A DNA stretch of 64,000 nucleotides from Rhodothermales bacterium (GCA_024711125.1 JANJTM010000031.1:34059-98058); one strand, 5' to 3'; shown: positions 21,395 through 60,435, numbered from the stretch's first letter. Notes: generated by a model not told the origin, from the letters alone. Numbers and translations: made by a program.

Positions 21395-21404
21395 CGCGTC
21401 CGGA

Positions 21405-33091: not shown

Positions 33092-34180
33092 GTGCAGGCG
33101 CTTTCGGGGCGCTTTCGCAATCCGCTCCTGGGCGTCACCATCTACGATATCGCGAGCGCGGCCGGTGTCTCCATCGCCACCGTGTCCCGGGTTTTCAACG
33201 GGCATCCGCGCGTTTCGTGCGCCGCGCGCGACCAGGTCATGGAAGTGGCCGACCGGTTGGGGTATCAACCGCACGTCTCGGCGCGCAGCCTGGCGCGCCG
33301 GCGCGCGAACGTGGTCGCGGCCGTGATCCCGATGCTCACCAACCTGTTCTTCGTGGACGTGCTGCGCGGATTGCAGGACCGCATGGCCGAGAGCGAGTTC
33401 GACCTCCTGGTCTTCTCGGCTCGAACGCTCGACGAAGTGGACGTGCAGCTCGACCGCGCGCTCGCGCGCGGCCGCGCCGCCGGTGTGCTGGTCTTTTCCA
33501 CGCCGTTGGCCGACGCCCGCGCCCGGAGGCTCGGGCACACGTCCCAACCGGTCGTGCTCGTGGATTCGGTGCATCCCGACTTCGATTCGGTTTCGACCGA
33601 CAACGTGGAGGGCGGCCGTCTCGCGGCGCGCCACCTGCTGGAAACCGGGGCGCGTCGGCTTGCGCTCCTCATGGCGCATCCGGATTCTATCCCCGCTTCC
33701 GATCGGAAACAGGGGTTCACCGAGGTGCTCGACACGGCCGGGCTCGACGCGGACTCCCTGCGTATCGTGCACGCGAGCGATCCGCTGCACCACGGCTACA
33801 GCGAAGCGGCGGGGTACGACGCGATGAAGAGGCTGCTCCACGCGGGGGATCGTCCCGACGCGGTCTTCGCGACCAGCGACGTGCAGGCTCTCGGGGCGCT
33901 CGAAGCCCTGGCCACTGCCGGCCTCGGGGTGCCCGATGACATGCGGCTCATGGGGTTCGACGACATCATGCTCAGTCGCCACGTCGGGCTCACGACCGTC
34001 AGGCAGCCCATGTACGAACTCGGTCGACTGGCCGCCGAGCGCCTCGTCACTCGCATCGACGACCCCGACCGCGAACCGGCGCACACCGTGCTGTCGCCCC
34101 GCCTGGTCGTGCGCGGCACGACGGTCGATACGACGGTCGCGCGGTCGCTGCGCAGGATCCAACCCGTAGCCGTGTCGTGA
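33092..34180 (+). CDS. LacI-family transcriptional regulator
   Basis: VTIYDIASAAGVSIATVSRVFNGHPRVS HTH, followed by a periplasmic-binding-protein-like sugar domain. Confidence 0.85.
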   Translation: MQALSGRFRNPLLGVTIYDIASAAGVSIATVSRVFNGHPRVSCAARDQVMEVADRLGYQPHVSARSLARRRANVVAAVIPMLTNLFFVDVLRGLQDRMAESEFDLLVFSARTLDEVDVQLDRALARGRAAGVLVFSTPLADARARRLGHTSQPVVLVDSVHPDFDSVSTDNVEGGRLAARHLLETGARRLALLMAHPDSIPASDRKQGFTEVLDTAGLDADSLRIVHASDPLHHGYSEAAGYDAMKRLLHAGDRPDAVFATSDVQALGALEALATAGLGVPDDMRLMGFDDIMLSRHVGLTTVRQPMYELGRLAAERLVTRIDDPDREPAHTVLSPRLVVRGTTVDTTVARSLRRIQPVAVS

Positions 34181-35838
34181 GGCTGCGCCGCTCCATACCG
34201 CCCGTGTTCGCCATGCTGGCGTTCCTGGCCTGCGGCAGCGGCGACGATCCGGTGCTCGTGACCGTCGAAGGGCAGCCGATCCGATGGAGCGAATACCGGG
34301 ACGCCTACATAGACTACCTCGCCGGGACCGGCCTCGAGGACGAACCGTCCCGCCGGCGCGGATTCCTGGAGCGCCTGGTCTCGATGCGCCTCGTCGTGCT
34401 CGAGGGCCGGGACGCCGGCCTCGCCTCCACCCCGGAATTCGCGTCATTCGAGGAGAAGGCGGCCCGCAGGCTGCTTGTCGACGCGTTCCTCGCCGACGCG
34501 GCGTTCGATACCCTCACCGCATCCCGCGAGGAGCTCGAGGCCATGTTCGTACGGGTGAACACCCGCATCACGGCCCGGCACCTGTATGCGAACTCGGCCG
34601 AGGAAGCGGCGGCGCTCAAACGGCGGCTGGATTCCGGCGAGACGTTCGAATCGTTGGCGCGAGAGGTCTTCGTCGATTCGACGCTGGCAGCGGGCGGCGG
34701 GTCGGTCGGGACGTTCGGCTTCGACGAGATGGACCCGTCCTTCGAGGACGCGGCGTACGCGCTGCCCGTAGGCGCGGTGTCCGATCCGGTGCGCACGGCA
34801 CAGGGTTGGTCCGTGATCCGCGTCGACGACCGGTCGGTGAACCCGTTGCTGACGGCTCAGGAATTCGCCGAACGGCTTCCGGAACTCAGCCGCTACGTCG
34901 TCGAGCGCCGTCGGAGCACGGTGCGCAGGGAGTGGTCTGACCGCCTGGTCGCCGAACTCGCTCCGCGGCTGGAACCGGCGACCGCGGCCGGGCTGCTCGA
35001 CCGCATTGCGGGCGTCGGACCTTCCGAAGCCGGGCCCGGGGACGAAGCCGTGCTGGTGCGCTTCCGCGCAGGGGGAGCCGATCGCACGTGGAACGTGGCC
35101 GAATTCCGGCGGCAGGCCGAGTTGGCGTCGGATCGCCAACGGGCCTCGGTGACGGACGCGCGCAGCCTCGAGGCGTTCGTCGTCGGCCTGCTCGTGCGCG
35201 AGGAAATGGCCCGCAGGGCCCTGGACCGCGATCTCGACGAGACGCCCCGGTACCGGCGCGCGCTGGCCACGGCGATCGAGGAATGGCTCTACGAGCGTTC
35301 CTTTGCCCGGTTGGCGGCCAGGGTCCCGGTGCCCGAGGACAGCGTGACGGCCTATTTCGACCGGCATCGCGACGAATTCACGCTTCCGCGGGCCGTGCGG
35401 GTTCGCGAGATCGCAAGCGCCACGAAGCGCACGGCCGATTCGCTGCGAGCTGCACTGGGCGCCGCCGAATTCGGCGAACTGGCCCGCCGCCATTCCGTCC
35501 GGGCCACGGCCGGCGTCGGGGGCGACCTGGGCTGGCTCACGGACGACGACCTGGGCCCGTGGGCCCGAGCGGCGTTCTCGGCGGATCCGGGCGAAGTCCT
35601 CGGACCGCTGGAGATGCGCGGGCAGTACCTTCTGCTGGAAATCGGCGAGCGGCGCGATGCGCGGCCGGCCGATTTCGACGACGTCAAGAATGCCATCAAC
35701 GAGCAGCTCGCCCGGGAGTCGCAGCGCGACTTCCTGCGGGAGCACGTGACCCTGCTGCGCGAGCGGTACGAGGTCCGGTATGCCGAGAAGGGACCGGAGT
35801 CCTACCCGCTCGTCGCGGAAACCCATCGAACATCCTGA
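34177..35838 (+). CDS. Lipoprotein peptidyl-prolyl isomerase with two parvulin (PpiC) domains, SurA/PpiD-like
   Basis: AMLAFLACGSG lipobox. Parvulin blocks are ARHLY...GGGSVGTFGFDEMDPSFEDAA...GWSVIRV and GGDLGWLTDDDLGPW...GQYLLLEI. It overlaps the lacI stop by 4 nt. Confidence 0.8.
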   Translation: MRLRRSIPPVFAMLAFLACGSGDDPVLVTVEGQPIRWSEYRDAYIDYLAGTGLEDEPSRRRGFLERLVSMRLVVLEGRDAGLASTPEFASFEEKAARRLLVDAFLADAAFDTLTASREELEAMFVRVNTRITARHLYANSAEEAAALKRRLDSGETFESLAREVFVDSTLAAGGGSVGTFGFDEMDPSFEDAAYALPVGAVSDPVRTAQGWSVIRVDDRSVNPLLTAQEFAERLPELSRYVVERRRSTVRREWSDRLVAELAPRLEPATAAGLLDRIAGVGPSEAGPGDEAVLVRFRAGGADRTWNVAEFRRQAELASDRQRASVTDARSLEAFVVGLLVREEMARRALDRDLDETPRYRRALATAIEEWLYERSFARLAARVPVPEDSVTAYFDRHRDEFTLPRAVRVREIASATKRTADSLRAALGAAEFGELARRHSVRATAGVGGDLGWLTDDDLGPWARAAFSADPGEVLGPLEMRGQYLLLEIGERRDARPADFDDVKNAINEQLARESQRDFLREHVTLLRERYEVRYAEKGPESYPLVAETHRTS

Positions 35839-35845
35839 TTCTTCC

Positions 35846-38680
35846 ATGCGAAAGCTCTCGTCCGCATTGTTCCTCGTCGCGGCCCTGACGGCCGGGGGAT
35901 CCTATGCCCAGACGGGCAAGATCGCCGGCCGCGTCACCGATGCGGCGACCGGCGAATCGCTGCCGGGCGTCAACGTCGTGATCGAGGGGACCCTCCAGGG
36001 CACCTCCACCAACCTGGACGGCGAGTACGTCATCATCGGCGTGCGTCCCGGCGTGTACACCGTCCAGGCGTCGTTCATCGGCTACCAGACCAAGCGGGTC
36101 GAGGGCGTGCAGGTGAACCTCGACCTTACCGCGACGATCGATATCTCGCTCGGTGAGGAAGTCATCATGGGCGAGGAGATCGTGGTCACGGCCGAGGCGG
36201 TAACCGTACGCAGGGACGTCACGAGTTCCGAAGCCCGCGTGACGGCAGAGACGCTCGAGCGTCTGCCCGTCACCGAACTCGGCCAGGTGCTCGAGGTCCA
36301 GGCCGGCATCACGACGCGGGGGGGGCTGCACATCCGCGGCGGACGATCGAGCGAAGTCGTGTTCATGGTGGACGGCGTGCCCGTGACGGACTCGTACGAC
36401 GGTTCGACGGCCGTGCAGCTCGAGAACGACGGCATCGAGGAGTTGCAGGTGATCTCGGGCACCTTCAACGCCGAGTACGGCAACGCGATGTCGGGCATCA
36501 TCAACGTCGTGACCAAGGAAGGACGCGGCGACCGGTATGCCGGTTCGGTGCAGCTGTACACGGGTGCCTACGCGGTGGGTTCGGGCGGCGGGGAGGACTT
36601 CCTGCGGGGCCTGAACGCGGCCGAGCAGACGAAGGCGGGCATCCAGTACCGCGACGTCGATCCCTACTCGTACCTCCCGGTGCGTCCCAACCACTTCTAC
36701 AATGCCCAGATGGCCCTCGAGGGCCCGATCGCCGGCGACAAGCTGACCTTCTTCGCGCTGGGGCGCTACTTCCGCAACGACGGATGGCTGTACGGCGCGC
36801 GCATCTACGACGCGCTCGGCCGCGCCGCGGACTCGAGCCTCGTCCCGATGAACAATTTCGAGCGCCTGTCCTGGCAGGCGAACGTGCGGTACCGGCTCAA
36901 CCGGAGCATGATCCTGAACCTGATCACCCTCGGGCAGTCCGGCGAGTCGCGCGACTACAGCCTGTTCCGGCGGTGGGCGCCCGACGGGCGTGGCTACAAT
37001 TTCAACCGCGGGCGCGACGTCAAGCTCAAGCTGACCCACCTGCTGAGCGCCACGACGTTCTACACGATCGACCTGGCGTCCTTCCGTGCGAACTACGAAT
37101 CGTACCTGTACGAGGACCCCTTCGACAGCCGCTACAACGACTTCAACATCGTGACGCCCGACTCGGTCGAGGTACGTCCGGGCGAATGGGAGACCGTGGT
37201 CACCGGCGGCGGGCGGTACGGGCGGGGTGGCACCGACACCGGGCGTTTCGATCGCCAGACGACGTCGTACCTGCTCAAGGGGGACGTCTCGAGCCAGATC
37301 GGCCGGAGCCACCTGGTCAAGGCCGGCTTCCAGCTCAAGATCGACGACATGAACCTGACCGGGTACGGGCTGCAGCAGGCGATCGACCCGGAGACCGGGG
37401 CGGTGGCCGTGCCCTTCCGCCCCGCGATCCCCGATTCGACCACCTCGAACTTCACGCACTTCTCGGGCTTCAGCCCGATCACGCTCAGCGCGTATGCGCA
37501 GGACAAGATCGAGTTCGAGAACTTCATCGTGAACGCCGGGCTGCGCTTCGACTGGTTCGACTCGCGCGCGCAGATGCCGGCCGATCCGAGCGATCCCAAC
37601 ATCTACAACCCGTTCAAGCTGCTCAACCGGTACCGCGACACCAACGGCAACGGCACGATCGACGAGTCGGAGGAAGTCGATTCGAACCGCAAGACGGTGG
37701 CCGAACGGGAGGCCTACTGGTGGGACAAGCCGACGGCCAAGTCGCAGATCTCGCCGCGCCTCGGCGTCGCCTACCCGATCACCGAGCAGGGTGTCGTGCA
37801 CTTCTCGTACGGCATCTTCTTCCAGATTCCGACCATCAACCAGATGTCGGACAACTTCGGGTACAAGATCGCCGCGCAGTCGGGTTCGTACGGGCCGTTC
37901 GGAAATCCCGACCTGGACGCCCAGAAGACGACGATGTACGAGATCGGCTTCAAGCAGGGCTTCGGCGACTTCGTGCTCGACGTGACGGGTTACTACCGCG
38001 ACGTGCGCTCGTGGGTATCGACGTCGACGCCGATCGTGACCGAGCTTCCGGGCATCACGTACGTGGTGTACACGAACCGCGACTACGCGAACACCCGGGG
38101 CATCACGGCCAGCTTCAAGCGCAACTACCGGGACGGCTGGGGCTTCGACCTGAGCTACACCTACCAGGTGGTCGAGGGCTCGAATTCGAACCCGGCCGAC
38201 GAGTTCTTCTCGCTGCTCGCCAACAACCAGCCCACGCTCGCGCTGCTTCCGCTCAACTGGGACCAGCGTCACAAGCTGGCGGGTGCGATGTACTTCGGTA
38301 GCGACGATTGGGGCGGATCGGTCCGTTTCCGCGTAGCCAGCGGGTTCCCGTATACGCCGACCTTCACCCAGGCCGCGCTCACGGGCAACGACGTTCAGCC
38401 CGAGTTTCCGAGCAATTCGCGCCGTATCCCCGGCACGTACGAATTCGACCTGAACCTGTACAGGCAGTTCGATTTCGGATTCCTGAAGCCGCGCCTCTTC
38501 GTCGAGGTGTTCAACCTGCTCGACACGCGCAACGTCACGGGCGTATTCGCCGACACCGGCGAGCCGGACGTCACGCTCGAACAGCGCCGGCTCGGGCTCT
38601 TCGACGCCGGGTTCTACGTGCGTCCGGAGCACTACGTGGAACCCCGCCGCATCCAGGCGGGCATCGACTTCCGCTTCTGA
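35846..38680 (+). CDS. TonB-dependent receptor, SusC-like (CarboxypepD_reg domain, plug and barrel)
   Basis: Signal MRKLSSALFLVAALTAGGSYAQ, GKIAGRVTDAATGESLPGVNVVIEGT...GVYTVQASFIGY, plug-like IRGGRSSEVVFMVDGVPV, and a terminal GIDFRF. Confidence 0.85.
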   Translation: MRKLSSALFLVAALTAGGSYAQTGKIAGRVTDAATGESLPGVNVVIEGTLQGTSTNLDGEYVIIGVRPGVYTVQASFIGYQTKRVEGVQVNLDLTATIDISLGEEVIMGEEIVVTAEAVTVRRDVTSSEARVTAETLERLPVTELGQVLEVQAGITTRGGLHIRGGRSSEVVFMVDGVPVTDSYDGSTAVQLENDGIEELQVISGTFNAEYGNAMSGIINVVTKEGRGDRYAGSVQLYTGAYAVGSGGGEDFLRGLNAAEQTKAGIQYRDVDPYSYLPVRPNHFYNAQMALEGPIAGDKLTFFALGRYFRNDGWLYGARIYDALGRAADSSLVPMNNFERLSWQANVRYRLNRSMILNLITLGQSGESRDYSLFRRWAPDGRGYNFNRGRDVKLKLTHLLSATTFYTIDLASFRANYESYLYEDPFDSRYNDFNIVTPDSVEVRPGEWETVVTGGGRYGRGGTDTGRFDRQTTSYLLKGDVSSQIGRSHLVKAGFQLKIDDMNLTGYGLQQAIDPETGAVAVPFRPAIPDSTTSNFTHFSGFSPITLSAYAQDKIEFENFIVNAGLRFDWFDSRAQMPADPSDPNIYNPFKLLNRYRDTNGNGTIDESEEVDSNRKTVAEREAYWWDKPTAKSQISPRLGVAYPITEQGVVHFSYGIFFQIPTINQMSDNFGYKIAAQSGSYGPFGNPDLDAQKTTMYEIGFKQGFGDFVLDVTGYYRDVRSWVSTSTPIVTELPGITYVVYTNRDYANTRGITASFKRNYRDGWGFDLSYTYQVVEGSNSNPADEFFSLLANNQPTLALLPLNWDQRHKLAGAMYFGSDDWGGSVRFRVASGFPYTPTFTQAALTGNDVQPEFPSNSRRIPGTYEFDLNLYRQFDFGFLKPRLFVEVFNLLDTRNVTGVFADTGEPDVTLEQRRLGLFDAGFYVRPEHYVEPRRIQAGIDFRF

Positions 38681-38723
38681 CCCGATCCACCCCGAACCCC
38701 GACCGGGTTAGCGAACCAACGGT

Positions 38724-41700
38724 ATGAACCAGCGATTCTCCCCCCGTATCGCCGTCCAGGTGGCCCTTTTCGGCCTTTTCCTGGCGAGCGCCGGCACGGT
38801 GAGCGCCCAGGGCGTCATCGACCGGAACCACGTTCCGAGCAAGGAGCGCATCGACCCGTTCGAGCGCCGCAAGGACAACGTCGACGCCAACAACGTGCGC
38901 GCGACGATCACCAACTACGCGCAGACGGCCGAGTCCGGAACCCCGGGCGACTACCTCTACGAGTGGCCCAAGAACACGAACCGGACCTACATCGCGCTCA
39001 CGCAGCTCTGGGTCGGCGCGCGGGCCGTCGATACGCGGGGCGACACGCTGTGGGTCGTCGACGTGGCGGATTTCCGCAACAATCCCGTCAACGAGAACGT
39101 GTCGTGGAAATTCGACCCGATCAAGGGGTACGTGAATCCGGCGGGTTCGGCGTTCGGCATCGCGCAGTCGGACGAACCGACCTCCTGGCCCCAGTCGTGG
39201 CCCGACAAGGCGACCGACGTCGTGGATCCCGGGTGGGCGGGTTCGTGGAACGGGTTCTTCGGGAAGAACAACTTCAACGCCGATCAGGAATTCTTCTACA
39301 AGGTCGGTGACGACCAGTACGACCGCTATCCGACGTTTTTCCCCGACTCGACGGATCTCACCCGCAAGGGCATGGGCCTGATCGCCGAGGTCCGGACCCT
39401 GGCGTGGAGCCAGATCCTGATCGACGACGTCGTATTCCATATCCACGGCATCAAGAACGACGGCACGGCGGCGCTTCCGCAGGTCGGGTTCTCGATGTGG
39501 CTGGCCGACCTGGTCGGCGGCGATTCGCAGGACGACATCCCGTTCTTCGACCTGCTCGAGGACGTGGCGTTCATGACCGACGCCGACGGGATCGGCGACG
39601 AGACGTTCGGTGCGGACCGCGTCGGGCAGGCGGTGTTCGCGTTCCTCGAGACCCCGGGGAACGCCGTCGACCGCATCGACAACGACGCCGACGGATCGAC
39701 CGCGCCCGAGTGCGTTCCGTCGATCGGCGAGTGCAACAGCCCGATCGTGCCCGAGGGCTTCCTGATCGGCGAGAACCCGACGAACGGCGTGGACGACAAC
39801 GGGAACGGGCTCATCGACGAGAACCAGACGCACACGGCGTTCGTGGGCGAGCAGGCCGTCAACATCGGCGTGGGTTACGCGGACTACATCGACAACGACC
39901 GGGACGGCGAGCAGGGAGGCCCCGTCGTGACGGCCGACATGCTGGCCGCGGCCTCGTCGGACGCGTTCTTCCGCTGGCCCCCGAACCCGGGATCGGACAA
40001 TATCTCGAAACGGGCCAACGGCCGGCCGATCGTTCACCTGATCGGCGTCGAACAGGACGACCTCGGTCTTCCGTTCCGCGACAACATCGACAACGACGAC
40101 TCGTGCGTCGCGCCGACGGCGGCGTATCCCTACCTGTCGGAATCCCGGTCGCCGACCGTGACGCAGGAGATCGTCAACGCGGCCGCCGCCGACCCCTACC
40201 GGCGCTACCGCGTGCCCGGTACCAACGTCGTACTGTACGACGTCGGCCCCGAGGACCTGGGCAAGTGCTACGCCGACGGGCGCGACAACGACGGCGACGG
40301 CGCGGTCGACGAAGGCATCGACGAGGGCTTCGACGAGATGATCGACGAAAGCCGGGCCGACGGAATCGACAACGACGGCGACTGGAATCCGCTCCAGAGC
40401 GACACGGGCCTCGACGGCGTTCCGTTCACGGGCGACCCGGGCGACGGCGACGGCGTGCCGACCACGGGCGCGGGCACGGGCTTCCCGGGCGAACGCAACA
40501 TCGACGTGACCGACATCTCGGAATCGGACCAGATCGGCATCACGAACGTGCAGATCTTCCCGGCCTTCTCGCTCAACTTCAATACGCAGTCTGACCGGTA
40601 CCTCTTCAACACGTTCATGCGGCCGGGTGACTTCGACGCCGACATCCCGGCGCCGGGCGAGAACGACATCACCGTGTCGTCGGCCCTCTTTCCGCTCGAA
40701 CCGGGCCAGACCGAGCGCATCTCGCTCGCCATCGGCCTGGGCGGAAGCCGCGACGAGGTGCTGCAGTCGCGCCAGTACGCGCTGCAGGCGTACCTGGAGG
40801 ACTACCAGTTCGCGCAGGCTCCGATCACGCCGGAGCTTTCGGCGGTGGCCGGCGACGGCCGGGTGACGCTCTACTGGGATTCGGACGCCGAGGAATCGTA
40901 CGACCAGTTCCTCGCGGGACTCGGTCGCGACCCGAACGACTTCGAGGGCTACCGCGTCTACCGCGCGACCGACCCGGCATTCCTCGACGCGCTCACGATC
41001 ACCGACGGGTTCGGCAATACGCTGCTCCGCAGTCCTATCGCCCAGTTCGACAAGATCAACGCGCACTCGGGTTTCCACCCGGTCGACATCAACGGCGTCA
41101 AGTTCTTCCTCGGAACGAACCGGCGCGACACGGCGCTCGGCGAGGACGCGTACGGACTCGTGCACTCGTTCGTCGATACCACGGTGACCAACGGCATCAC
41201 GTATTACTACGCGGTCACCGCGTACGACTACGGATCGGTGATCGACAACATCCCGCCGACAGAAACGCCGATCCGCATCCAGCGGCAACCCGACGGATCC
41301 ATCGTCCCCGGGCGCAACGTCGCCGTGGTGACGCCGACCCCGGCCACGGCCGGCATGGTGGCGGCCGACATTCCCGAGGGAATCCAGCGTACGAAGGGGG
41401 CGACATCCAGCCGCATCGGCTACCGCATCATCGACCCGACGGTCATCGACGACGGCCGGCGCTATCGCATCACGTTCGAGGACACGCTCAAGCCGTCGGG
41501 CAACCGGAACGTTCCCGACACCCTGACCACGAAGAACTTCTCGCTGCACGACGTGGCAAGCGGCGAAACCCTCATCGAACGCTCCACGGCGTTCGGCACG
41601 AACGAGGAGTTCCCGGTGTTCGACCGGTTCGGGGACCCGCTCGGGTTCAACCTCTCGTTCTTCCTCGAGCCGTTCATCCTGCTCAACCGCACGGCCTCGG

Positions 41701-42596
41701 TGTGGAACGGCGACGCGGCGTCGAACATCTACCCGGTGACCCTCGAGCCGTACCTCTCGGCGGGCTTCCTGACGGGCCTTCGCAATCCGACCGACTATCG
41801 CGTCAAGGTCGTAGGCCCGGGCCAGGGACAGTCGGTCCAGATCCAGGTGGCGCGCCGCCTGACCCTGCCGGCCCGCCCGACCAACGTCCAGGTGTTCAGG
41901 GTGCACCCGGACGGCACCGAGGAGCCGGTCGAATACGCGTTCTGGGACCTCACCGGCCCCGATTTCACGTCGCCGACCGCGACCACGCCGGCTTCGTGGT
42001 CGGCGTCGCCGACCCTCGGCGAGAGCGACCTGCTGGTGCTCTACGAAGTCCCGGTGGGTGCGACCGACAACGTCAAGAAGGTCACGTGGCGCATCGGGCT
42101 CAACTTCGTGTTCCGTGACAACCGGGATCCGCAGGAGGGAGACGTGATCGACATCGTCACGCGCAAGCCGTTCCTGTCCACCGACGAGTTCGAGTTCACG
42201 GTGCGCGCGCCGTATACCGACGCGGCGCTGGCCGACTCGCTGATGGAACGCATACGGGTCGTTCCGAACCCGTACGTGGCCACGAACAGCTTCGAGCCGC
42301 TGAATCCCTTCACCACGGGACGCGGGCCTCGGGTCATCAAGTTCATCAACCTTCCGCCCGACGCCACGGTGCGCATCTTCACGGTCGCCGGCCGGCTCGT
42401 GCGGACCCTGCGGAGGGACTACGGGGCCAACGACATCCCCGAGGATCCCTACGCCGCCCTCAACCTGATGAACGGTACCCTGGACTGGAACCTCGAGAGC
42501 GAGGAGGGGCTGACCGTTTCGTACGGGGTCTACCTGTACCACGTCGACGCGCCCGGAATCGGCGAGAAGACCGGCACCTTCGCGATCATCAAGTAG
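38724..42596 (+). CDS. 1290-aa secreted protein of unknown function: acidic DxDxDG-type loops, an FN3-like module and a C-terminal T9SS-CTD-like beta-sandwich
   Basis: Signal VALFGLFLASAGTVSAQ. Acidic loops include DNDADGS, DDNGNGLIDEN, DNDRDGEQG, DNDGDGAVDEG and DNDGDWN. The FN3-like module reads VTLYWDSD...GYRVYRATDP...YYYAVTAYD. The C-terminus is VVPNPY...VRIFTVAGRLVRTL...GVYLYHV...GTFAIIK. Confidence 0.8.
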   Translation: MNQRFSPRIAVQVALFGLFLASAGTVSAQGVIDRNHVPSKERIDPFERRKDNVDANNVRATITNYAQTAESGTPGDYLYEWPKNTNRTYIALTQLWVGARAVDTRGDTLWVVDVADFRNNPVNENVSWKFDPIKGYVNPAGSAFGIAQSDEPTSWPQSWPDKATDVVDPGWAGSWNGFFGKNNFNADQEFFYKVGDDQYDRYPTFFPDSTDLTRKGMGLIAEVRTLAWSQILIDDVVFHIHGIKNDGTAALPQVGFSMWLADLVGGDSQDDIPFFDLLEDVAFMTDADGIGDETFGADRVGQAVFAFLETPGNAVDRIDNDADGSTAPECVPSIGECNSPIVPEGFLIGENPTNGVDDNGNGLIDENQTHTAFVGEQAVNIGVGYADYIDNDRDGEQGGPVVTADMLAAASSDAFFRWPPNPGSDNISKRANGRPIVHLIGVEQDDLGLPFRDNIDNDDSCVAPTAAYPYLSESRSPTVTQEIVNAAAADPYRRYRVPGTNVVLYDVGPEDLGKCYADGRDNDGDGAVDEGIDEGFDEMIDESRADGIDNDGDWNPLQSDTGLDGVPFTGDPGDGDGVPTTGAGTGFPGERNIDVTDISESDQIGITNVQIFPAFSLNFNTQSDRYLFNTFMRPGDFDADIPAPGENDITVSSALFPLEPGQTERISLAIGLGGSRDEVLQSRQYALQAYLEDYQFAQAPITPELSAVAGDGRVTLYWDSDAEESYDQFLAGLGRDPNDFEGYRVYRATDPAFLDALTITDGFGNTLLRSPIAQFDKINAHSGFHPVDINGVKFFLGTNRRDTALGEDAYGLVHSFVDTTVTNGITYYYAVTAYDYGSVIDNIPPTETPIRIQRQPDGSIVPGRNVAVVTPTPATAGMVAADIPEGIQRTKGATSSRIGYRIIDPTVIDDGRRYRITFEDTLKPSGNRNVPDTLTTKNFSLHDVASGETLIERSTAFGTNEEFPVFDRFGDPLGFNLSFFLEPFILLNRTASVWNGDAASNIYPVTLEPYLSAGFLTGLRNPTDYRVKVVGPGQGQSVQIQVARRLTLPARPTNVQVFRVHPDGTEEPVEYAFWDLTGPDFTSPTATTPASWSASPTLGESDLLVLYEVPVGATDNVKKVTWRIGLNFVFRDNRDPQEGDVIDIVTRKPFLSTDEFEFTVRAPYTDAALADSLMERIRVVPNPYVATNSFEPLNPFTTGRGPRVIKFINLPPDATVRIFTVAGRLVRTLRRDYGANDIPEDPYAALNLMNGTLDWNLESEEGLTVSYGVYLYHVDAPGIGEKTGTFAIIK

Positions 42597-42616
42597 CCCG
42601 GACAGGTAGAGCTGCC

Positions 42617-43657
42617 ATGAAGACATCAACCATCACGCTCTCGGCCCTGGCCCTGCTCGTCGCGACCGCGACGCCGGCCGCGGCCCAGTTCGAGGCTGCG
42701 ACCCGTACGGTGACGAAACGGGGCACGACGGCGGCCGAGTTCCTCTCGATCCCGGTCGGCGCGCGCGCCACCGCCATGGGCAACGCGGTCACGGCGGTGA
42801 TCGACGATCCCTCGGCCGTGTACTGGAATCCGGCGGGCCTGACCCACGTCCAGGGAGGGGCCCTGACGGTCGACTACGCGCAGTGGCTGGCCGGCATCGA
42901 CATGAACTTCATCTCGGTGGTGATGCCGATGTCGGGCGGAAAGCTGGCGCTCGGCATCACGTCCATGCGTACGCCCGAGATGGAGGTGACGACGGTGGAA
43001 CAGCAGAACGGCACGGGCGAGACCTTCGACGCCGCGTCGTATGCTTTCTCCCTCACGTACGCGCGGGCGCTCACCGACCGGTTCTCGATCGGCGGATCGG
43101 TCAAGCGAGTGCAGGAGCGCATCTGGAACTCGTCGGCCTCGGGGACCGGTTTCGACGTCGGAACGCAGTTCGTGACGCCGTTCTACGGCATCCGTCTCGG
43201 CGCCGCGATCACCAATTTCGGATCCAAGCTGCGCATGACCGGGGACGACCTGCTCGTGCGCGTGGACGTGGATCCGGTCAATCGCGGCAACAACGAATCG
43301 AACCGCGCGTTGCTTCGAACGGACGCTTTCGACCTCCCGTTGACCATGCGCATCGGATTGGCCGGCGAGGTGTTCCAGGGACCGCAGTCGCGCCTGACGG
43401 TCGCGGTCGAGGCCCTGAACCCCAACAACAGCGAGCAGTACCTGAACGTGGGCGCCGAGCTGGGCCTGCTGGGCGATCTCGTCCAGTTGCGCGGCGGGTA
43501 CAGCGAACTGCTGCTGGACGATTCGGTCCGGGGCTTGACGTTGGGCGCGGGCCTGCGTTACCGTTTCGCCCCGCTCGCTTTCTCGTTCGACTACGCGTTC
43601 GAACAGCAGGAGTATTTTGCGGATGTCAACCGCCTAACCCTTTCGGTCAGTTTCTGA
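42617..43657 (+). CDS. PorV/PorQ-family (FadL-like) outer-membrane beta-barrel
   Basis: Signal ...ATATPAAAQ. AEFLSIPVGARATAMGNAVTAVIDDPSAVYWNPAGL is the family N-terminal motif as I remember it. The rest is an alternating beta-strand pattern ending LTLSVSF. Confidence 0.7.
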   Translation: MKTSTITLSALALLVATATPAAAQFEAATRTVTKRGTTAAEFLSIPVGARATAMGNAVTAVIDDPSAVYWNPAGLTHVQGGALTVDYAQWLAGIDMNFISVVMPMSGGKLALGITSMRTPEMEVTTVEQQNGTGETFDAASYAFSLTYARALTDRFSIGGSVKRVQERIWNSSASGTGFDVGTQFVTPFYGIRLGAAITNFGSKLRMTGDDLLVRVDVDPVNRGNNESNRALLRTDAFDLPLTMRIGLAGEVFQGPQSRLTVAVEALNPNNSEQYLNVGAELGLLGDLVQLRGGYSELLLDDSVRGLTLGAGLRYRFAPLAFSFDYAFEQQEYFADVNRLTLSVSF

Positions 43658-43711
43658 CGGAAAACCAGGCCCGGCGAACAGGCGTATGCCCGCCAGCCGG
43701 ACTCAACCCAT

Positions 43712-43736
43712 CCACCACCACCACCACCACACACAC
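43712..43736 (+). repeat. (CCA)6 followed by (AC)4 microsatellite in the 5' leader of the CBM-protein gene
   Basis: CCACCACCACCACCACCACACACAC read directly. It ends 1 nt before the AAGAGGAG Shine-Dalgarno (43738-43745). Confidence 0.9.
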
Positions 43737-43752
43737 CAAGAGGAGCTGATCC

Positions 43753-45798
43753 ATGCATACCTCTACGAAACTGGCGCGCTGGGCCATGGTGGCGTTCGTC
43801 GTGCTGGGAGTGACCTCGACTGCCAGTGCGCAGCGCACGGTCACCCTCAAGCTCAACACCGCCACCCTGCCCGACACGCTCGACGCGCTGGACGAGATCC
43901 AGATCCGCGGCGCGATCGGCGGCGCCGCCCCGGGCGCCCTGCCCGGCGGCAACGTCATCGACTGGGGCTCCGGGACGACCCTCCGGGCCACCAACCAGGG
44001 CGGCGACTACTGGGAGGCCGTCTTCCAGATCCCCGATGCCCAGGAGCTGAAGTACAAGTTCTACTCCCAGCGTGCCGAGTCTGACGGCGTAGGCGGATGG
44101 GAGGACGGAAGCGACCATACGATCGCCGCCGGCACCGGCAACTTCGACGGCGGCCTGCACTACTTCGAGAAGGGCGCCGACAAGGCGTACAACTGGTCGC
44201 CGTTCGACAGCGCGACCCGGCCGGCCAACACGGTGGGCGTGCACTTCCGCGTCTACATGTGCTCGGTCGACGGCAAGGGCAACGGCTACGATCCCAACGA
44301 CACGACGCAGATCATCGGCGTTCGCGGCGCTCCGGAGCCGGGCGTGCTCGACTGGGGGCAGACGAAGGTCGAACTGAAGCAGGAGTCCTCGGAGAAGGGC
44401 AAGCCGGGCTACGACATGTGGTCGGGCGTTGCCTACTACCCGGCGGCTTCGGCCGGCCAGCGCCAGATGTACAAGTTCGTCATCCATGACGGCGGCAACG
44501 TGGGCTGGGAAAACGGCAACCTGCCGGGCGACCGCTCCTTCGTCGTTCCGGCGCAGGACACGACGCTGCACTGGCAGTACTTCGGCAATACGGCGGCCCG
44601 CACCTGCGGCCTGCCCCCGCAGCTCGCGACGGTGATCTTCTCGGTCGACCTCGCGCCGCTGCAGGACGTCGGCCTCTTCGACAAGTCGCGCGGCGACACC
44701 CTCCAGGTGCGCGGCGGCTTCAACGGCTGGGGCTGCTCGAACCCCGACCGCTGCCTCCTCCTGCCCTTCCCGGGCACGTCGATCTACGAGGCGGCCGTGG
44801 CACTCGAGGCGTTCCCCGAGTCGATATACGCCTACAAGTACTACATCGAGTTCAACGACGAGAACTTCCGAGCCGCGTTCGGGGCCGCTCCTCCGAACGG
44901 GTGGGAAGAGCCGGTGACGACGACGGGCGCCGACCGCACGTTCGTTTTCGAAGGCAACCCGGCCCGCGAGCAGTTCCTCGGCGATACGCGCTTCAACGAC
45001 GTGTACGAGGGCAACATCATGCTGGGCGGAGAATCCACCCAGGTGACGTTCACCGTCGACATGACGCCCGCGCTGACCGCCGCCGAGCCGTTCGTTCCGG
45101 GTACGCACAGCGTGTTCATCGACTTCACGGGTGACGGCACCTGGGCGTTCCTCGCGGGCATTCCGCGTACGAACGACGGTGTCGGCTTCCGCATCGACGA
45201 TACGTTCACGCTGACGCGCCAGGGCACGACGAACATCTACAAGGGCACCTTCAACCTGCAGGGCCCGAACTACGCCGTGCTCCAGTACAAGTACTCGTAC
45301 GGCGCTGCGGGCTCGGGCGTGTTCAACACCGAGGTCGGCGGTACCACGGCGCAGATCGGCCGTCGCCGCACGCGCTACGTGCAGCCGAACGCCGACGGTT
45401 CGTGGCCGGCGACGTTCTCGATCGTGCCGGAGACGTTCCAGCCCACCGGGCGCCTTCCGTATGACGCGTGCAACCCGGGCTTCGATTCGAACTGCTTCGT
45501 GAACGTGGCAAGCGAGCGCGGCGGCGAAGTGCCGACCTCGGTCACGCTGGCGCAGAACTTCCCGAACCCGTTCAACCCGACGACCTCCCTCGAGTACACC
45601 GTCGATCGCACGACCGACGTCAAGCTCCAGGTCGTCGACCTGCTCGGCCGCGTCGTGGCGACCCTCGTCGACGCCAAGCAGCAGGCGAACACCTACCGCG
45701 TGACCTTCGACGCGTCGAAGCTCGCGAGCGGCACGTACCTGTACCGCCTCGAGACGCCGCACCAGACGATCACGAAGACGATGGTGCTCATCAAGTAA
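43753..45798 (+). CDS. Secreted protein with four tandem CBM-like beta-sandwich modules and a T9SS type-A C-terminal sorting domain
   Basis: Four repeats share the pattern V.F.V ... RG...W ... YKF/YKY ... WE..DR. The C-terminus is LAQNFPNPFNPTTSLEYTV...LLGRVVATLVD...LASGTYLYRLET...MVLIK. Confidence 0.8.
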   Translation: MHTSTKLARWAMVAFVVLGVTSTASAQRTVTLKLNTATLPDTLDALDEIQIRGAIGGAAPGALPGGNVIDWGSGTTLRATNQGGDYWEAVFQIPDAQELKYKFYSQRAESDGVGGWEDGSDHTIAAGTGNFDGGLHYFEKGADKAYNWSPFDSATRPANTVGVHFRVYMCSVDGKGNGYDPNDTTQIIGVRGAPEPGVLDWGQTKVELKQESSEKGKPGYDMWSGVAYYPAASAGQRQMYKFVIHDGGNVGWENGNLPGDRSFVVPAQDTTLHWQYFGNTAARTCGLPPQLATVIFSVDLAPLQDVGLFDKSRGDTLQVRGGFNGWGCSNPDRCLLLPFPGTSIYEAAVALEAFPESIYAYKYYIEFNDENFRAAFGAAPPNGWEEPVTTTGADRTFVFEGNPAREQFLGDTRFNDVYEGNIMLGGESTQVTFTVDMTPALTAAEPFVPGTHSVFIDFTGDGTWAFLAGIPRTNDGVGFRIDDTFTLTRQGTTNIYKGTFNLQGPNYAVLQYKYSYGAAGSGVFNTEVGGTTAQIGRRRTRYVQPNADGSWPATFSIVPETFQPTGRLPYDACNPGFDSNCFVNVASERGGEVPTSVTLAQNFPNPFNPTTSLEYTVDRTTDVKLQVVDLLGRVVATLVDAKQQANTYRVTFDASKLASGTYLYRLETPHQTITKTMVLIK

Positions 45799-45830: not shown

Positions 45831-45880
45831 CCGGGGCCGGTGCGCGCCGCAGGGCGCGTGCCGGCCCCGGTCGCTTTTCG
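45831..45880 (+). terminator. Strong intrinsic terminator or attenuator between the CBM gene and the amylase gene
   Basis: 18-bp stem CCGGGGCCGGTGCGCGCC / GGCGCGTGCCGGCCCCGG (two G-U pairs) with loop GCAG, followed by TCGCTTTTCG. Confidence 0.6.
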
Positions 45881-45902
45881 GGGCAATCCGCTTCTCCTTC
45901 GC

Positions 45903-48900
45903 ATGGCCCGGTTCTACACCCTCCCGCTGATCCTCCTGCTGTCGGCGCTGCCTGCGCAGGCGCAGACGCTGAACGTCACCTTCCGCTACCTTCCGACCGG
46001 CGTGGTGGAGCGGGCGTTCGTGCCCGGACAGATCGTGGGCCAGTCCGGCTCCTTCACGAACTGGGGGCAGCCGTACAACGCGTCGAACTGTATCGCCGCG
46101 GGCAACGTGTCGGAGATGCAGTTCGTGCGCTTCCAGAATTACTGGGCAAAGACGTTCGCCCTGCCGCTCGGGGCCCGTCTCGAGTACAAGATCCAGGTCC
46201 ACCGCAACACGTCGGGCACGCAGTGCACCTGGCTGTCGGACCCGCTCAATCCGCTGACCAACCCGTCGAACAACTCCAATTCGGTCCTCGACGTCGTCGA
46301 CCCGATGGTATTCCAGCCGGCGGAAGAACCCGGCGCCTCGGTGGGCCTCGTCGGTCACTTCTCGGCCGGGCTCTTCTCGACGCAGCCGATCACCGCGATC
46401 ACCTACACCGTGAACGGCGTCGTGCGCACCGACGGGCTCACGCACTTCGACGCGGCGACCGGCGTCTTCCGCTACCGACTCGACCGGGAGGTGCGCAGCG
46501 GCGCGCAGTTCATCGTGGAGGCCACGGATGCGGGGGGGCGCACGATGCGGGCCGAGATCGGAACGCTCCAGCCTCCCATCGCGTGGCTGACCGGGCCGTT
46601 CACCGCGTTCACCGAAACGGCGACGCTGCGGGCGAGCGTCACCCGGCTGGACGGTTCGGTCGATCCGTCCGTCACCGAAGCGACCGTCTACGCGTTCGGG
46701 AATGCGATCGGCACCGCGCCGGTCACGAACGGGGCCATCACGGCCGAAGTGCCGCTCGTCGTGGGGCCCAACGTGTTCGCGCTCGAAGCGACCGTCGAGG
46801 GCGCGACCTACCGGACGGCCGATCTCCAGGTCGTACGGCGCACGCATCCGCTCCAGGCCTTCCTCGTCGACCCGGCGGTGTCGGGCACCGGGTTCGCCTT
46901 CACGATCGACCTCGTGCCGACGGGCGCCGGGCCGTCCCCGGACGCGACCTTCACCGTGGACGAGCGGCTGTCGACCACCACCGTATCCGGATTCGCGGCC
47001 GCCGGCCTGCAAGCCACCGGAACTGCCGCCGGACCGGGCGAGATCTTCGTCGACGTCGCGATCACCGCGGGAGCCCTGACCGACCGCCAGCGCGTCGCGG
47101 TCCTCGTGGGGGACGACGGCACGGCGCGCACGATGGCATGGGCTGAAAACGCGGCTTGGACGAAGAAGGCCGTCGTCTACGAGGTGTTTCCGCTCACCTT
47201 CGGACCGCGGGCTGCGGGCACGCCGGCGAGCCCCGGACCTCGGCTCGACCAGATCACCGCCGAGCTGGATTACATCGCGGCGATGGGCTTCAACACGATC
47301 TGGTTCATGCCCATCATGCACAACCAGTCGATGGACCCGGTCTCGGGCGGGTACAACATCAAGGATTTCTACACGGTCGACCCCACGATCGGGACGAACG
47401 ACGACTTCCGGGCGCTCGTCGACCGAGCCCACGAGCTGGGCCTCCGCGTGATCCTCGACTGGACGCCCAACCACGTCTCCCCGGTGCACCCGTGGGTGCA
47501 GAGCCTGCGCGAGGGCGGGCCGTTCGCCTCCTACCTCCAGACGACGCCATCCAGCCACGCCCGCGGACTCGACGGCCGCGGGGCCAACCTGCCCGAGATC
47601 TGGCAGACCGAGGGCGGCGCCAATTTCTACCGCAAGTACGACGGGTTCGGCGACCTCGCCAACCTCGACTGGGACGACGACGGGCTGCAGGCCGAGATGC
47701 TGGACGTGGTCGCGTACTGGATGAACGAGTTCGCGATCGACGGCTGGCGGTTCGACGTGTACTGGGGCCCGTGGCGGCGGTACGGTCCCGAGCGGTTCGG
47801 ACGTCCGATCCGCGAGCTCGTCAAGCGCATCCGGCCCGACGCGTGGCTGCTCGGCGAGATCGAGGGCACCGGCGGCGGCACCGAGGTCTACTATGCCGAC
47901 GACGATTTCGGAACCCCGGTCGAAGGCGGTCTCGACGCGGCGTACGACTGGACCTTCTATTTCAGCGGCATCCGCGGGTCGTACGCCGACCTCTCCGGGT
48001 ATCATTCGCGCATCGCGAACGGCAACTTCTGGCCGGGTCCGAACGCCCGCTTCTTCCGGTTCCTCGAGAACCACGACGAGCCGCGTATCGCGTGGGTGCA
48101 CCAGACGAACCTCGATCGCACCAAACCGCTCGCCGGCATGCTGCTCACCACGACCGGCGTGCCGATGGTCTACGCCGGCCAGGAAGTCGCGTTCGGAACG
48201 GGCAGCGACTACGACCAACGGGCGGTGGTGGACTGGAATACGCCCCGCAACGGGGAGTTCGCGGCGATGTACCAGCGGCTTGCCCACGTGCGCACGCGCT
48301 TTCCGGCGTTCTGGACGCAGCGCGTGACGTCGATCTACCAGGGCGTGGCCGTGCGCCAGGACCGCGTCTACGCCTACGTCCGGCCGTATCCGGAAGAGAA
48401 TGCCGTCGTGGCCGTCAACTTCGAGAACAGGCCGGTCACGGTCACCATCAACCCGAAGGCCGCCCTCGACTGGTCGACGGACGGCCCCATCCCGTACTAC
48501 GACGTCTTCGCCGACACCGTGCGGGCGTACGTAGGAGCCTTCACGATCACGGTGCCGGCGTACGAAACCGTGGTCTACATCACGTCCTCGGCACCCGGGT
48601 ACACGGCACCCACGTTGCCCGCATTGCCGTACGGCGCCGTCTACACCGGCGTCGAAGAGGGCGGGGAGCCCGGCGAACTGCCCCGGTCGGTGGATTTGGG
48701 AGCGGCCTGGCCCAATCCGTTCAACCCGGTGACACGCCTGGCCTTCGAACTTCCGGCGTCCGGTCCCGTCCGCCTGGACGTGTTCGACGCCGTCGGGCGC
48801 CGGGTAGCCACCCTGGCCGACGGCCTCCATCCGGCCGGCCGTCACGAGGCCGTGTTCGATGCGTCGAGCCTGCCGTCCGGGGTCTATTTCGCGCGCCTGC

Positions 48901-48947
48901 AGGCCGGGGCCGAGGTGCGCACCCGTAGCCTGGTCCTCGTCAAATGA
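45903..48947 (+). CDS. GH13 alpha-amylase-family enzyme with an N-terminal CBM48/E-set-like domain and a T9SS sorting domain
   Basis: GSFTNWG...EYKIQV...WLSDPLNP (glycogen-binding-like); GFNTIWFMPI, ILDWTPNHV, IDGWRFDV, LGEIEG and FLENHDEPR (GH13 regions I-IV); C-terminal WPNPFNPVTRLAFEL...SGVYFARL...LVLVK. Confidence 0.85.
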   Translation: MARFYTLPLILLLSALPAQAQTLNVTFRYLPTGVVERAFVPGQIVGQSGSFTNWGQPYNASNCIAAGNVSEMQFVRFQNYWAKTFALPLGARLEYKIQVHRNTSGTQCTWLSDPLNPLTNPSNNSNSVLDVVDPMVFQPAEEPGASVGLVGHFSAGLFSTQPITAITYTVNGVVRTDGLTHFDAATGVFRYRLDREVRSGAQFIVEATDAGGRTMRAEIGTLQPPIAWLTGPFTAFTETATLRASVTRLDGSVDPSVTEATVYAFGNAIGTAPVTNGAITAEVPLVVGPNVFALEATVEGATYRTADLQVVRRTHPLQAFLVDPAVSGTGFAFTIDLVPTGAGPSPDATFTVDERLSTTTVSGFAAAGLQATGTAAGPGEIFVDVAITAGALTDRQRVAVLVGDDGTARTMAWAENAAWTKKAVVYEVFPLTFGPRAAGTPASPGPRLDQITAELDYIAAMGFNTIWFMPIMHNQSMDPVSGGYNIKDFYTVDPTIGTNDDFRALVDRAHELGLRVILDWTPNHVSPVHPWVQSLREGGPFASYLQTTPSSHARGLDGRGANLPEIWQTEGGANFYRKYDGFGDLANLDWDDDGLQAEMLDVVAYWMNEFAIDGWRFDVYWGPWRRYGPERFGRPIRELVKRIRPDAWLLGEIEGTGGGTEVYYADDDFGTPVEGGLDAAYDWTFYFSGIRGSYADLSGYHSRIANGNFWPGPNARFFRFLENHDEPRIAWVHQTNLDRTKPLAGMLLTTTGVPMVYAGQEVAFGTGSDYDQRAVVDWNTPRNGEFAAMYQRLAHVRTRFPAFWTQRVTSIYQGVAVRQDRVYAYVRPYPEENAVVAVNFENRPVTVTINPKAALDWSTDGPIPYYDVFADTVRAYVGAFTITVPAYETVVYITSSAPGYTAPTLPALPYGAVYTGVEEGGEPGELPRSVDLGAAWPNPFNPVTRLAFELPASGPVRLDVFDAVGRRVATLADGLHPAGRHEAVFDASSLPSGVYFARLQAGAEVRTRSLVLVK

Positions 48948-59439: not shown

Positions 59440-60435
<996 letters not shown>

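Follow-up and report, generated by a model that had tools for sequence, protein, structure and literature searches.

A TonB-dependent transporter, a large CTD-bearing protein and a PorV/PorQ-type barrel as the proposed core of a SusD-independent polysaccharide-utilisation locus

Positions 35846–43657 of a 64,000-nucleotide stretch of DNA from a Rhodothermales bacterium (GCA_024711125.1, JANJTM010000031.1:34059-98058; the whole stretch is called the window here) contain three consecutive genes on the + strand. The first encodes a TonB-dependent transporter (TBDT) of 944 amino acids (aa; 35846..38680), the second a secreted protein of 1290 aa that belongs to no Pfam or NCBIfam family and that we call BIG (38724..42596), and the third an outer-membrane barrel of 346 aa from the PorV/PorQ family (42617..43657; NF033709). 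The GC content of the window is approximately 67%, and open reading frames (ORFs) were therefore filtered by codon-position GC; all coding ORFs across the window that were supported by the GC content of third codon positions (GC3) were scanned against Pfam. The GC3 of all three genes of the trio is 0.88–0.92, a strong coding signal, and the gaps of 43 and 20 nt that a sequence-only reading of this DNA had reported between them are exact, as are the coordinates. That reading suggested that the barrel may hold BIG at the cell surface as a glycan-capturing partner of the receptor, taking the place that SusD has in other systems.

The TBDT has a signal peptide, a TonB-box-like sequence (EEIVVTA) and a terminal Phe. 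Pfam places an N-terminal carboxypeptidase-regulatory-like domain at aa 26–114 (PF13715 and PF13620), a Plug domain at aa 123–217 (PF07715) and TonB_dep_Rec_b-barrel at aa 373–891 (PF00593). The receptor had been described as SusC-like, and with respect to these domains the description is accurate, but it does not extend to membership of the SusC/RagA family. The TIGR04056 model gives 84.4 bits against a cut-off of 368, and the match covers only model positions 2–221 of 981, which correspond to the N-terminal extension and the plug. No SusC/RagA chains are found among the PDB sequence matches of the TBDT at E ≤ 1e-5. As the TIGR04056 match is confined to the N-terminal 220 positions, "SusC-like" can be used for the N-terminal architecture only.

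A SusC protein would be expected to have a SusD/RagB lipoprotein as its partner, and the earlier statement that no such gene exists in the window is borne out, as none of the GC3-supported coding ORFs of the 64 kb matches SusD/RagB in Pfam. An unannotated gap at 31.2–33.1 kb was considered as a possible location for a hidden SusD and rejected, because it carries a glycosyltransferase-like gene. The SusC/SusD pair on which the strict PULDB definition of a polysaccharide-utilisation locus (PUL) is based is thus not found at the window locus. BIG itself does not qualify as a SusD/RagB protein: it has no SusD match in Pfam, its type-I signal peptide lacks Cys and lipobox (aa 1–28, GTVSA-QG; 38724..38807), and it is not alpha-helical. 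Pfam (E ≤ 0.1) and NCBIfam assign BIG to no family at all, and neither SusD nor PorU/C25 is matched in these profile checks. The BIG family alignments contain no invariant Cys or His, which excludes a C25-type protease and agrees with the earlier observation that BIG lacks C25-type catalytic motifs.

Following the signal peptide, BIG begins with a beta-sandwich module (approximately aa 40–330, 38841..39713) that is delimited by AlphaFold2 (AF2) strands and invariant columns and is kept family-wide, with W155, W159, W175, W228, E189 and R224 invariant. It leads into an acidic region (39678..40391) where a motif scan found six loops of the form D-x-[DN]-x-[DN]-G (aa 319, 357, 390, 454, 521 and 549), which are largely conserved in the family and putatively bind calcium. 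At least five such loops had been claimed, and this count stands; the accompanying comparison with the TSP_3 model gave no Pfam match to the loops, and part of the region is of low confidence in the AF2 model. The FN3-like module that had been read in the sequence corresponds to a conserved core (approximately aa 700–850, 40821..41273) with invariant columns and the family signature DFEGY[RK][IV]YR ... YYYAVTAYD, and arrays of FN3 domains are among the Foldseek neighbours of BIG.

To describe how conservation is distributed along BIG we compared alignments of its orthologues (A1) and paralogues (A2). The family-wide core consists of aa 151–250, 551–600 and 701–850 plus the C-terminal domain (CTD), and the acidic residues E189, D560, E590, E600, D602, E723, D776 and D818 are invariant throughout the family. 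Two further segments are conserved in a different way. An insert at aa 351–500 is conserved in the starch-locus orthologues and not in the paralogues, while a variable beta-sandwich segment at aa 1001–1100 (41724..42023), which lies within a confidently modelled part of the protein, has a conservation of 0.53–0.55 in the starch-locus orthologues versus 0.18–0.21 in the paralogues. From this pattern we propose both segments as candidate determinants of substrate specificity.

AF2 models of BIG were calculated from a 48-sequence alignment. The model of aa 29–1175 has a pLDDT of 79.8 and a pTM of 0.64 and is almost entirely beta, which excludes a SusD-like TPR fold, while the model of aa 880–1290 has a pLDDT of 85.9. 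The predicted order of domains is an N-terminal sandwich, the acidic-loop region, a small alpha/beta unit, the FN3-like core, two to three further sandwiches and the CTD. In addition to the FN3 arrays, the weak neighbours found by Foldseek are PorU and the sandwich domains of GH94, GH149, GH144 and dextran dextrinase (GH, glycoside hydrolase). The latter matches extend over approximately 300 columns with probabilities of 0.85–0.99 and E > 1e-3, and they may fall on the N-terminal module of BIG. The match of PorU (6za2) to the C-terminal model is non-significant (E 1.2e-3, probability 0.33, TM 0.13).

These likenesses allow BIG to be read as an enzyme that has escaped recognition, for instance a lyase or hydrolase that processes glycans or depends on calcium. 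Such a reading could draw on the acidic residues that are invariant family-wide, on the putative calcium sites, and on the local resemblance to sandwich domains that accompany the GH94, GH149 and GH144 catalytic domains. We consider it improbable, since the domains matched in the PDB are themselves non-catalytic sandwiches, none of them significant, and since a full set of carbohydrate-active enzymes (CAZymes) is already present in each locus. It is also hard to square a single catalytic activity with one conserved BIG core that is found in alpha-glucan, dextran, beta-1,2-glucan, xylan, mannan and rhamnoside loci.

The last 115 aa of BIG (aa 1176–1290, 42249..42593) had been described as a beta-sandwich resembling a type IX secretion system (T9SS) sorting domain. 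AF2 predicts seven to eight beta strands in this part, which contains the motifs VVPNPY ... GVYLYHV ... FAIIK. Homology was established by hhalign (93%, E 3.5e-7), which compared the profile of the BIG CTD with those CTDs of neighbouring cargo proteins that are positive for Por_Secre_tail, and one member of the family (P0396) has been named "T9SS type A sorting domain-containing protein" by NCBI. Taken together, the homology, the NCBI name and the predicted strands identify the BIG CTD as a divergent class of T9SS-type CTD. The PorZ model NF052228 reaches 13.8 bits with BIG (E 0.015, cut-off 260), in the CTD region only.

The third gene of the trio encodes a barrel that matches NF033709, the model of the PorV/PorQ family, from end to end (185.3 bits, E 2e-54, cut-off 90, model positions 1–326 of 326), so that the PorV/PorQ-like character proposed for it is secure. 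All 64 of the 64 family barrels match this model too. The window barrel remains below the cut-offs of the equivalog models for PorQ (NF033711, 100.7 of 220 bits), PorV2 (NF052325, 82.2 of 325) and PorV (NF033710, 60.1 of 250); across the family the nearest equivalog is PorQ, and no equivalog cut-off is reached. The solved PorV of Flavobacterium johnsoniae (6h3i_F) is a marginal sequence match in the PDB (E 0.032). PorV is usually encoded next to the C25 sortase PorU, and no PorU or Peptidase_C25 gene was found beside the barrel or elsewhere in the window with Pfam and NCBIfam.

The cassette has a fourth conserved member that the sequence-only reading missed. Directly upstream of the TBDT lies a gene for a SurA-like periplasmic chaperone (34177..35838, +) with two PPIC-type peptidyl-prolyl isomerase (PPIase) domains, which Pfam detects as Rotamase, Rotamase_2 and Rotamase_3 in two stretches, and a gene of this kind occupies the same position in 42 of 58 assessable loci. 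It is unusual for a glycan-uptake operon to contain its own chaperone gene. The window PPIase is a lipoprotein in which an acidic GSGDD follows the Cys (AFLAC-GSGDD). By analogy with BamJ and BamK the PPIase was considered as a possible lipoprotein of the cell surface, but this was set aside as a family trait: a lipobox occurs in only about 20 of the 44 orthologues, and the acidic signature in 8. In a xylan-type locus (L087:5306-6760) and an Ignavibacteriales locus (L088:5454-6929) the usual slot of the PPIase upstream of the TBDT is taken by a protein of 484–491 aa without a Pfam match, which may be a divergent or alternative accessory.

The Bacteroidota BAM complex includes a FadL-like barrel that anchors surface proteins, as well as PPIases (PMC12578637), and with this precedent the PPIase, barrel and BIG could be regarded as a biogenesis module dedicated to the TBDT, akin to the BamG, surface dome and PPIases of BAM, and not as a device for capturing substrate. 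The presence of a SurA-like PPIase in the cassette fits such a role, as does a weak match to the BamG model, which is reached at E ≤ 1e-5 by only 4 of the 64 family barrels. We nevertheless regard this as very unlikely. The window barrel matches the PorV/PorQ family at E 2e-54 versus E 0.013 for BamG (NF053685), where it obtains 14.6 bits against a cut-off of 250. A T9SS CTD should serve no purpose in an assembly factor, several paralogous cassettes can occur in one genome, each in a different glycan locus, and the segments of BIG that are conserved in orthologues and divergent in paralogues track the type of locus.

The BIG family is large. A search with the window protein gave 768 matches, the closest being 88% identical; a xylan-type member used as query gave 1601, and a profile of distant members gave at least 3465 clusters at 90% identity. 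Almost all of these homologues are annotated as hypothetical proteins without a precomputed Pfam domain. In an exhaustive HMMER search clustered at 50% identity, E ≤ 1e-3 gave 1127 clusters and the stricter E ≤ 1e-30 gave 319. For synteny we used the best 80 of at least 568 relatives of BIG, obtained from a scan with one genome per GTDB species, and placed the window proteins on the six-frame ORFs of these 80 loci (numbered L001 and so on below). The loci come from Rhodothermales, Balneolales, Ignavibacteria/Melioribacter, Calditrichota, Neomarinimicrobiota, KSB1, Kryptonium, Stahlbacteria and unclassified metagenome-assembled genomes (MAGs) of the Fibrobacterota–Chlorobiota–Bacteroidota (FCB) group, and represent at least eight lineages; protein searches add WOR-3 and Delongbacteria.

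Across these loci the composition of the cassette is very stable. Of 70 assessable loci, 68 have the TBDT gene directly upstream of BIG. The barrel gene adjoins BIG in 69 of 71, being downstream in 67 and following the order TBDT-barrel-BIG in two; the remaining two cases are an artefact of ORF calling and a frameshifted contig. One Marinimicrobia and one Ignavibacteriales locus (L076 and L081) have the order TBDT, barrel, BIG, PPIase, in which the four genes stay together though permuted. No SusD family member was found in the homologous loci that were annotated with Pfam (L001, L002 and L083–L088).

In the window the cassette sits inside a starch locus, as had been stated. The set begins with a LacI-family regulator (33092..34180, +; Pfam LacI and Peripla_BP_3), the stop of which overlaps the start of the PPIase gene by 4 nt and which is kept in this position in L001, L002 and other loci. 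Downstream of the barrel is a protein that combines CBM_20 with a canonical T9SS CTD (43753..45798, +; Pfam CBM_20 and Por_Secre_tail); it is likely to be a starch-binding surface protein, and its gene is kept downstream of the barrel in 44 loci. The next gene encodes a GH13 alpha-amylase with a T9SS CTD (45840..48947, +; Pfam Alpha-amylase and Por_Secre_tail), a likely surface endo-amylase, and this is followed by a GH13 lipoprotein that is likely to be periplasmic (48944..50857, +; Pfam Alpha-amylase, DUF3459 and Malt_amylase_C; lipobox LVSC). An inner-membrane sugar transporter of the major facilitator superfamily (MFS; 50894..52348, +; Pfam MFS_1/MFS_2) and a third GH13 protein, again a lipoprotein (52360..53856, +; Pfam Alpha-amylase and Alpha-amylase_C; lipobox LSAC from the ATG at 52360), complete the series. 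A glucan phosphorylase gene, recognised by Pfam, lies upstream of the locus on the opposite strand. The identical order of ten genes is found in Rubrivirga marina and in one Rhodothermales MAG. With LacI, TBDT, the CBM20-CTD protein, three GH13 proteins and MFS transporter the window contains what a functional definition of a PUL asks for, and the gene set is a complete starch-utilisation locus. Paralogous loci follow an equivalent plan with other CAZymes. The 95-nt spacer between the barrel and CBM20 genes (43658–43752) contains a GC-rich hairpin at 43669–43696 and then a CCA/CA-rich low-complexity tract; this arrangement could be a site of transcript processing or attenuation between the uptake and cargo genes. 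A scan of the locus for promoters and terminators was uninformative, terminator-like sites being rarer than in shuffled sequences.

The association with glycan genes extends well beyond starch. The loci nearest to that of the window (L003–L050) carry GH13 and CBM20-like genes and are starch loci, and a Pfam census of 74 genes that neighbour distant paralogues found 24 Por_Secre_tail and 8 FlgD_ig proteins together with GH13, GH66, GH94, GH144-type "Glycoamylase", GH63/GH78-like, CBM9, CBM20 and F5/8-type-C domains, sodium:solute symporters and LacI regulators. The distant triads are usually accompanied by LacI regulators and sugar transporters. Individual loci can be assigned to dextran (L060, with two GH66), beta-1,2-glucan (L059, L078 and L084, with GH94 and GH144/CBM30), xylan (L071, with GH43-CBM6; L087, with GH8, GH10-CTD, CBM4_9-CTD, GH115 and a glucuronoyl esterase), mannan (L081, with GH26), rhamnosides (L085, with GH78), a sulfated glycan (L076, with a sulfatase, CBM9 and an AGE-family epimerase) and, in WOR-3, alpha-glucan (L083, with GH13/GH57). 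TonB-ExbBD adjoins the triad of L084, L088 has two triads in tandem, and L059 and L060 are two differently specialised triads from one MAG. As the trio is present in multiple copies in loci for differing glycans, it behaves as a locus-defining uptake module, like SusC/SusD in Bacteroidia.

This census also bears on whether the trio is a generic envelope module, for example an adhesin or S-layer-like protein with its anchor, for which the position in a starch locus would be incidental. BIG has no recognisable carbohydrate-binding module (CBM), and adhesins often contain FN3 and Ig-like sandwiches, as that explanation would have it. A linkage to LacI, CAZymes and sugar transporters in all annotated loci examined, from Rhodothermales to WOR-3, and a TBDT that is invariably adjacent make it barely credible; the widely conserved triad is tied to glycan genes, and the lack of such a tie was one of the conditions under which the sequence-only reading would have counted as refuted.

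We think it probable that the trio and the SurA-like PPIase form the outer-membrane core of a SusD-independent PUL in which BIG, tethered to the barrel, captures substrate for the TBDT. The interpretation put forward in the sequence-only reading is supported in that every part of it that was open to sequence tools survived, while we infer the tethering, the surface exposure, the binding of glycan and the contact with the TBDT. According to this model BIG, which has a signal peptide, would cross the inner membrane by Sec and then the outer membrane through the T9SS by means of its CTD, for which homology is seen and export is presumed. The CTD would be neither cleaved nor exchanged for a lipid or lipopolysaccharide anchor, but would stay on the cognate barrel encoded downstream, as PorZ does on PorQ and PorU on PorV. 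The N-terminal sandwich and FN3 core would place BIG at or over the TBDT, and the segments aa 351–500 and 1001–1100 may bind the glycan of the locus, so that BIG would take the capture or lid role of SusD and of the surface glycan-binding proteins.

In the window the substrate would be starch, which the T9SS-displayed CBM20 protein and GH13 amylase would bind and cut at the surface. The TBDT would import malto-oligosaccharides with energy from TonB, periplasmic trimming would fall to the GH13 lipoproteins, and the MFS transporter would carry the products into the cell. LacI presumably controls the operon, all of these roles being assigned from what is known of the respective families, and the PPIase probably chaperones the assembly of both barrels.

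Retention of the CTD on the barrel is suggested by the adjacency of the two genes, their duplication as a unit, the strong conservation of the CTD and its co-variation with the barrel. The CTD is the best-conserved part of BIG, with a mean pairwise identity of 58% versus 44% in the preceding 585 aa, and it also exceeds the CTD of the adjacent CBM20 cargo, which has 41%. Such conservation would be expected of a permanent interface and not of a signal that is cleaved and discarded. In a mirror-tree test on 51 loci the partial correlation between CTD and barrel given the body of BIG was 0.42 versus 0.28 for CTD and TBDT given the body, and that between body and TBDT given the barrel was 0.44 versus 0.27 for body and barrel given the TBDT, all of these correlations being inflated by shared phylogeny. 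It is suggestive only, but the divergence of the CTD follows the barrel best while the body of BIG couples more to the TBDT. In L022 and L029, BIG and its barrel have been duplicated as a unit and have diverged in step. There is a precedent for uncleaved CTDs in PorU and PorZ, which retain theirs bound by PorV and PorQ (PMC10202324), and both the conservation of the BIG CTD and its co-variation with the barrel fit it; a T9SS review has speculated that cognate PorV-like barrels protect CTDs (PMC10202324).

Alternatively, the barrel could be dedicated to the locus as a whole and shuttle or attach all of its T9SS cargo with CTDs, the CBM20 protein and GH13 amylase as well as BIG. BIG would then be one more displayed glycan-binding or scaffold protein that has no special pairing with either the barrel or the TBDT. 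Canonical CTD cargo occurs in every locus, as the 24 Por_Secre_tail and 8 FlgD_ig proteins among the 74 neighbours illustrate. In the WOR-3 locus L083 BIG and the barrel are separated by another protein with a CTD, and in L070 and L061 two 100%-identical copies of the barrel stand beside BIGs that are only 36% and 51% identical to each other. These barrel copies are located at L070:13767-14819 and 17629-18681 and at L061:4996-5910 and 13275-14351, and they indicate either a weaker one-to-one pairing, an artefact of MAG assembly (collapse or duplication) or a recent gene conversion confined to the barrel. We nonetheless judge the shuttle explanation unlikely. Adjacency is specific to BIG and the barrel, in approximately 69 of 71 loci, while the cargo genes vary; the BIG CTD forms a hyper-conserved class of its own that differs from the CTDs of the cargo; and it is the barrel that CTD divergence tracks best, with BIG-barrel pairs duplicating as a unit.

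The intervening CTD protein of L083 and the identical barrels of L070 and L061 also count against the tethering model itself, as does the phylogenetic inflation of the mirror-tree correlations, and further observations have to be set on the same side. The type-A sorting-domain model (PF18962/TIGR04183, Por_Secre_tail) does not match the CTD of the window BIG in Pfam at E ≤ 0.1, and only 17 of 77 family CTDs match any T9SS-related CTD model (9 CHU_C, 5 FlgD_ig and 3 Por_Secre_tail). The glycan-capture role proposed for BIG is similarly burdened by the absence of a CBM that Pfam can recognise, and neither the 1147-aa nor the 411-aa model of BIG has a Foldseek match in the PDB at E ≤ 1e-3.

Several other features of the window and of related loci were recorded. 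A second triad was suspected at 12.7–21.5 kb on the minus strand and rejected, since the ORFs there encode a 2-oxoglutarate dehydrogenase of the OdhA type and BamA. The former (12733-16410, −) is a 1225-aa 2-oxoglutarate dehydrogenase E1 with an N-terminal E2-like 2-oxoacid dehydrogenase acyltransferase catalytic domain, an OdhA/Kgd-type fusion of the kind best known in Actinobacteria. The BamA gene (Omp85/POTRA; 18938-21547, −) lies 14 kb upstream of the locus and is unlinked to the triad, which is of relevance to the idea of a biogenesis module. A few kb past the starch locus is a gene for a GWxTD-domain protein (55655-57091, +), and another is found just upstream of an unrelated triad (L086:4699-6078); this may be a coincidence, or GWxTD proteins may be recurrent neighbours. 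A gene for HPr kinase/phosphorylase (60440-61459, +), a regulator of carbon catabolism more familiar from Firmicutes, directly follows a gene for a MoxR-type AAA ATPase (59440-60435, +) and lies near sugar-utilisation genes. At the right edge a GH106 alpha-L-rhamnosidase gene (61866-63992, −) runs off the end of the window and may be the start of a further glycan locus.

We propose that the trio belongs to a PUL built around the TBDT, where a T9SS-tethered partner stands in for SusD. On a wider scale, the trio and PPIase might constitute a second, T9SS-dependent PUL paradigm that serves many glycans across the FCB lineages outside Bacteroidia, in which BIG, held non-covalently by its uncleaved CTD, replaces SusD as lid or capture device; we put this forward more tentatively, as a possibility somewhat short of an even chance. 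Prediction of PULs, in PULDB and in most metagenomic pipelines, relies on SusC/SusD pairs. Predictions of that kind are blind to a module that marks glycan loci in abundant, little-studied lineages of marine, sediment and hot-spring habitats (Marinimicrobia, Calditrichota, KSB1, Ignavibacteria and Rhodothermales), and if the wider paradigm is true they miss the glycan-uptake systems of these lineages. If the model holds, it would provide a marker for glycan uptake in those phyla and a function for several thousand "hypothetical" proteins of 1000–1300 aa that have no Pfam domain. It would also widen the role of PorV/PorQ-type barrels from secretion to the permanent tethering of nutrient-capture proteins. 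Under the wider paradigm, the retention of a CTD protein by a PorV-like barrel would be a general mechanism of surface anchoring beyond the secretion machinery. The trio is also a natural experiment on how TBDTs gain lids that deliver substrate, and it has cultivable carriers in Rubrivirga marina, Melioribacter and probably Rhodothermus.

Searches of the full-text literature, with most subscription journals outside their reach, found no description of the module, so that a prior description is possible, and it goes unmentioned in the papers that describe the Melioribacter and Caldithrix genomes. A similar published arrangement is in the xylan cluster of Rhodothermus marinus (Rmar_1067-1081), where a TBDT (Rmar_1070), a hypothetical protein with a Por CTD (Rmar_1071), an exported hypothetical protein (Rmar_1072) and another CTD protein lie near GH43-CBM6 and Xyn10A; Rmar_1071 and Rmar_1072 were left as hypothetical, and uptake was ascribed to a SusC/SusD pair of the same cluster (PMC6987092). 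The order Rmar_1070–1072 matches that of the xylan-type triads L071 and L087, a likeness that is taken from the published gene table. Rmar_1071 is not among the top 120 matches of a xylan-type probe, and the link to the R. marinus cluster is a lead only.

Nutrient TBDTs that function with a partner other than SusD, or with none, are known from carbohydrate or vitamin uptake loci, namely from BtuB-BtuG of Bacteroides and from the CUT loci of Xanthomonas respectively. BtuG is a lipoprotein with a beta-propeller, and the CUT loci have no dedicated surface partner; neither system involves the T9SS or a second barrel. A dedicated barrel encoded beside one CTD protein is likewise seen in the SprF/PorP-like barrels that adjoin type-B-CTD cargo such as SprB of Flavobacterium johnsoniae, and the 9 of 77 BIG CTDs that match CHU_C do so weakly. 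The barrel described here differs from SprF/PorP in belonging to the PorV/PorQ family, and its cargo is tied to nutrient uptake and not to gliding adhesion.

The pairs PorQ-PorZ and PorV-PorU of Porphyromonas gingivalis also consist of a 14-strand-type barrel of the PorV/PorQ family and a large protein of multiple beta domains with a T9SS CTD, which in these pairs is uncleaved and bound by the barrel. PorZ (NF052228, E 0.015) and PorU (6za2, E 1.2e-3) are the best, if weak, neighbours of the C-terminus of BIG. BIG is not a PorZ or PorU, having neither a C25 domain nor an invariant Cys or His, and its barrel is not an equivalog of PorQ, PorV or PorV2. Furthermore, the BIG-barrel pair is not a housekeeping component of secretion but occurs in multiple copies, in catabolic loci beside a TBDT.

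The overall design resembles that of the SusC/SusD (RagA/RagB) PULs and "utilisomes". In both, a TBDT with an N-terminal extension is encoded beside its proposed surface partner and is co-regulated with proteins that bind glycans at the surface, with CAZymes of the surface and periplasm and with a sugar transporter of the inner membrane, and in both there are several paralogues per genome, each for another glycan. The components themselves are different. The TBDT of the trio fails the SusC model TIGR04056 (84 versus 368 bits), and while SusD is an alpha-helical TPR lipoprotein of approximately 550 aa, BIG is an all-beta protein of 1000–1300 aa that lacks a lipobox and has a Sec signal peptide and a T9SS-type CTD. 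Unlike SusC/SusD, the trio includes an obligatory barrel of the PorV/PorQ type, usually has a SurA-like PPIase in its operon as well, and is found mainly outside the class Bacteroidia.

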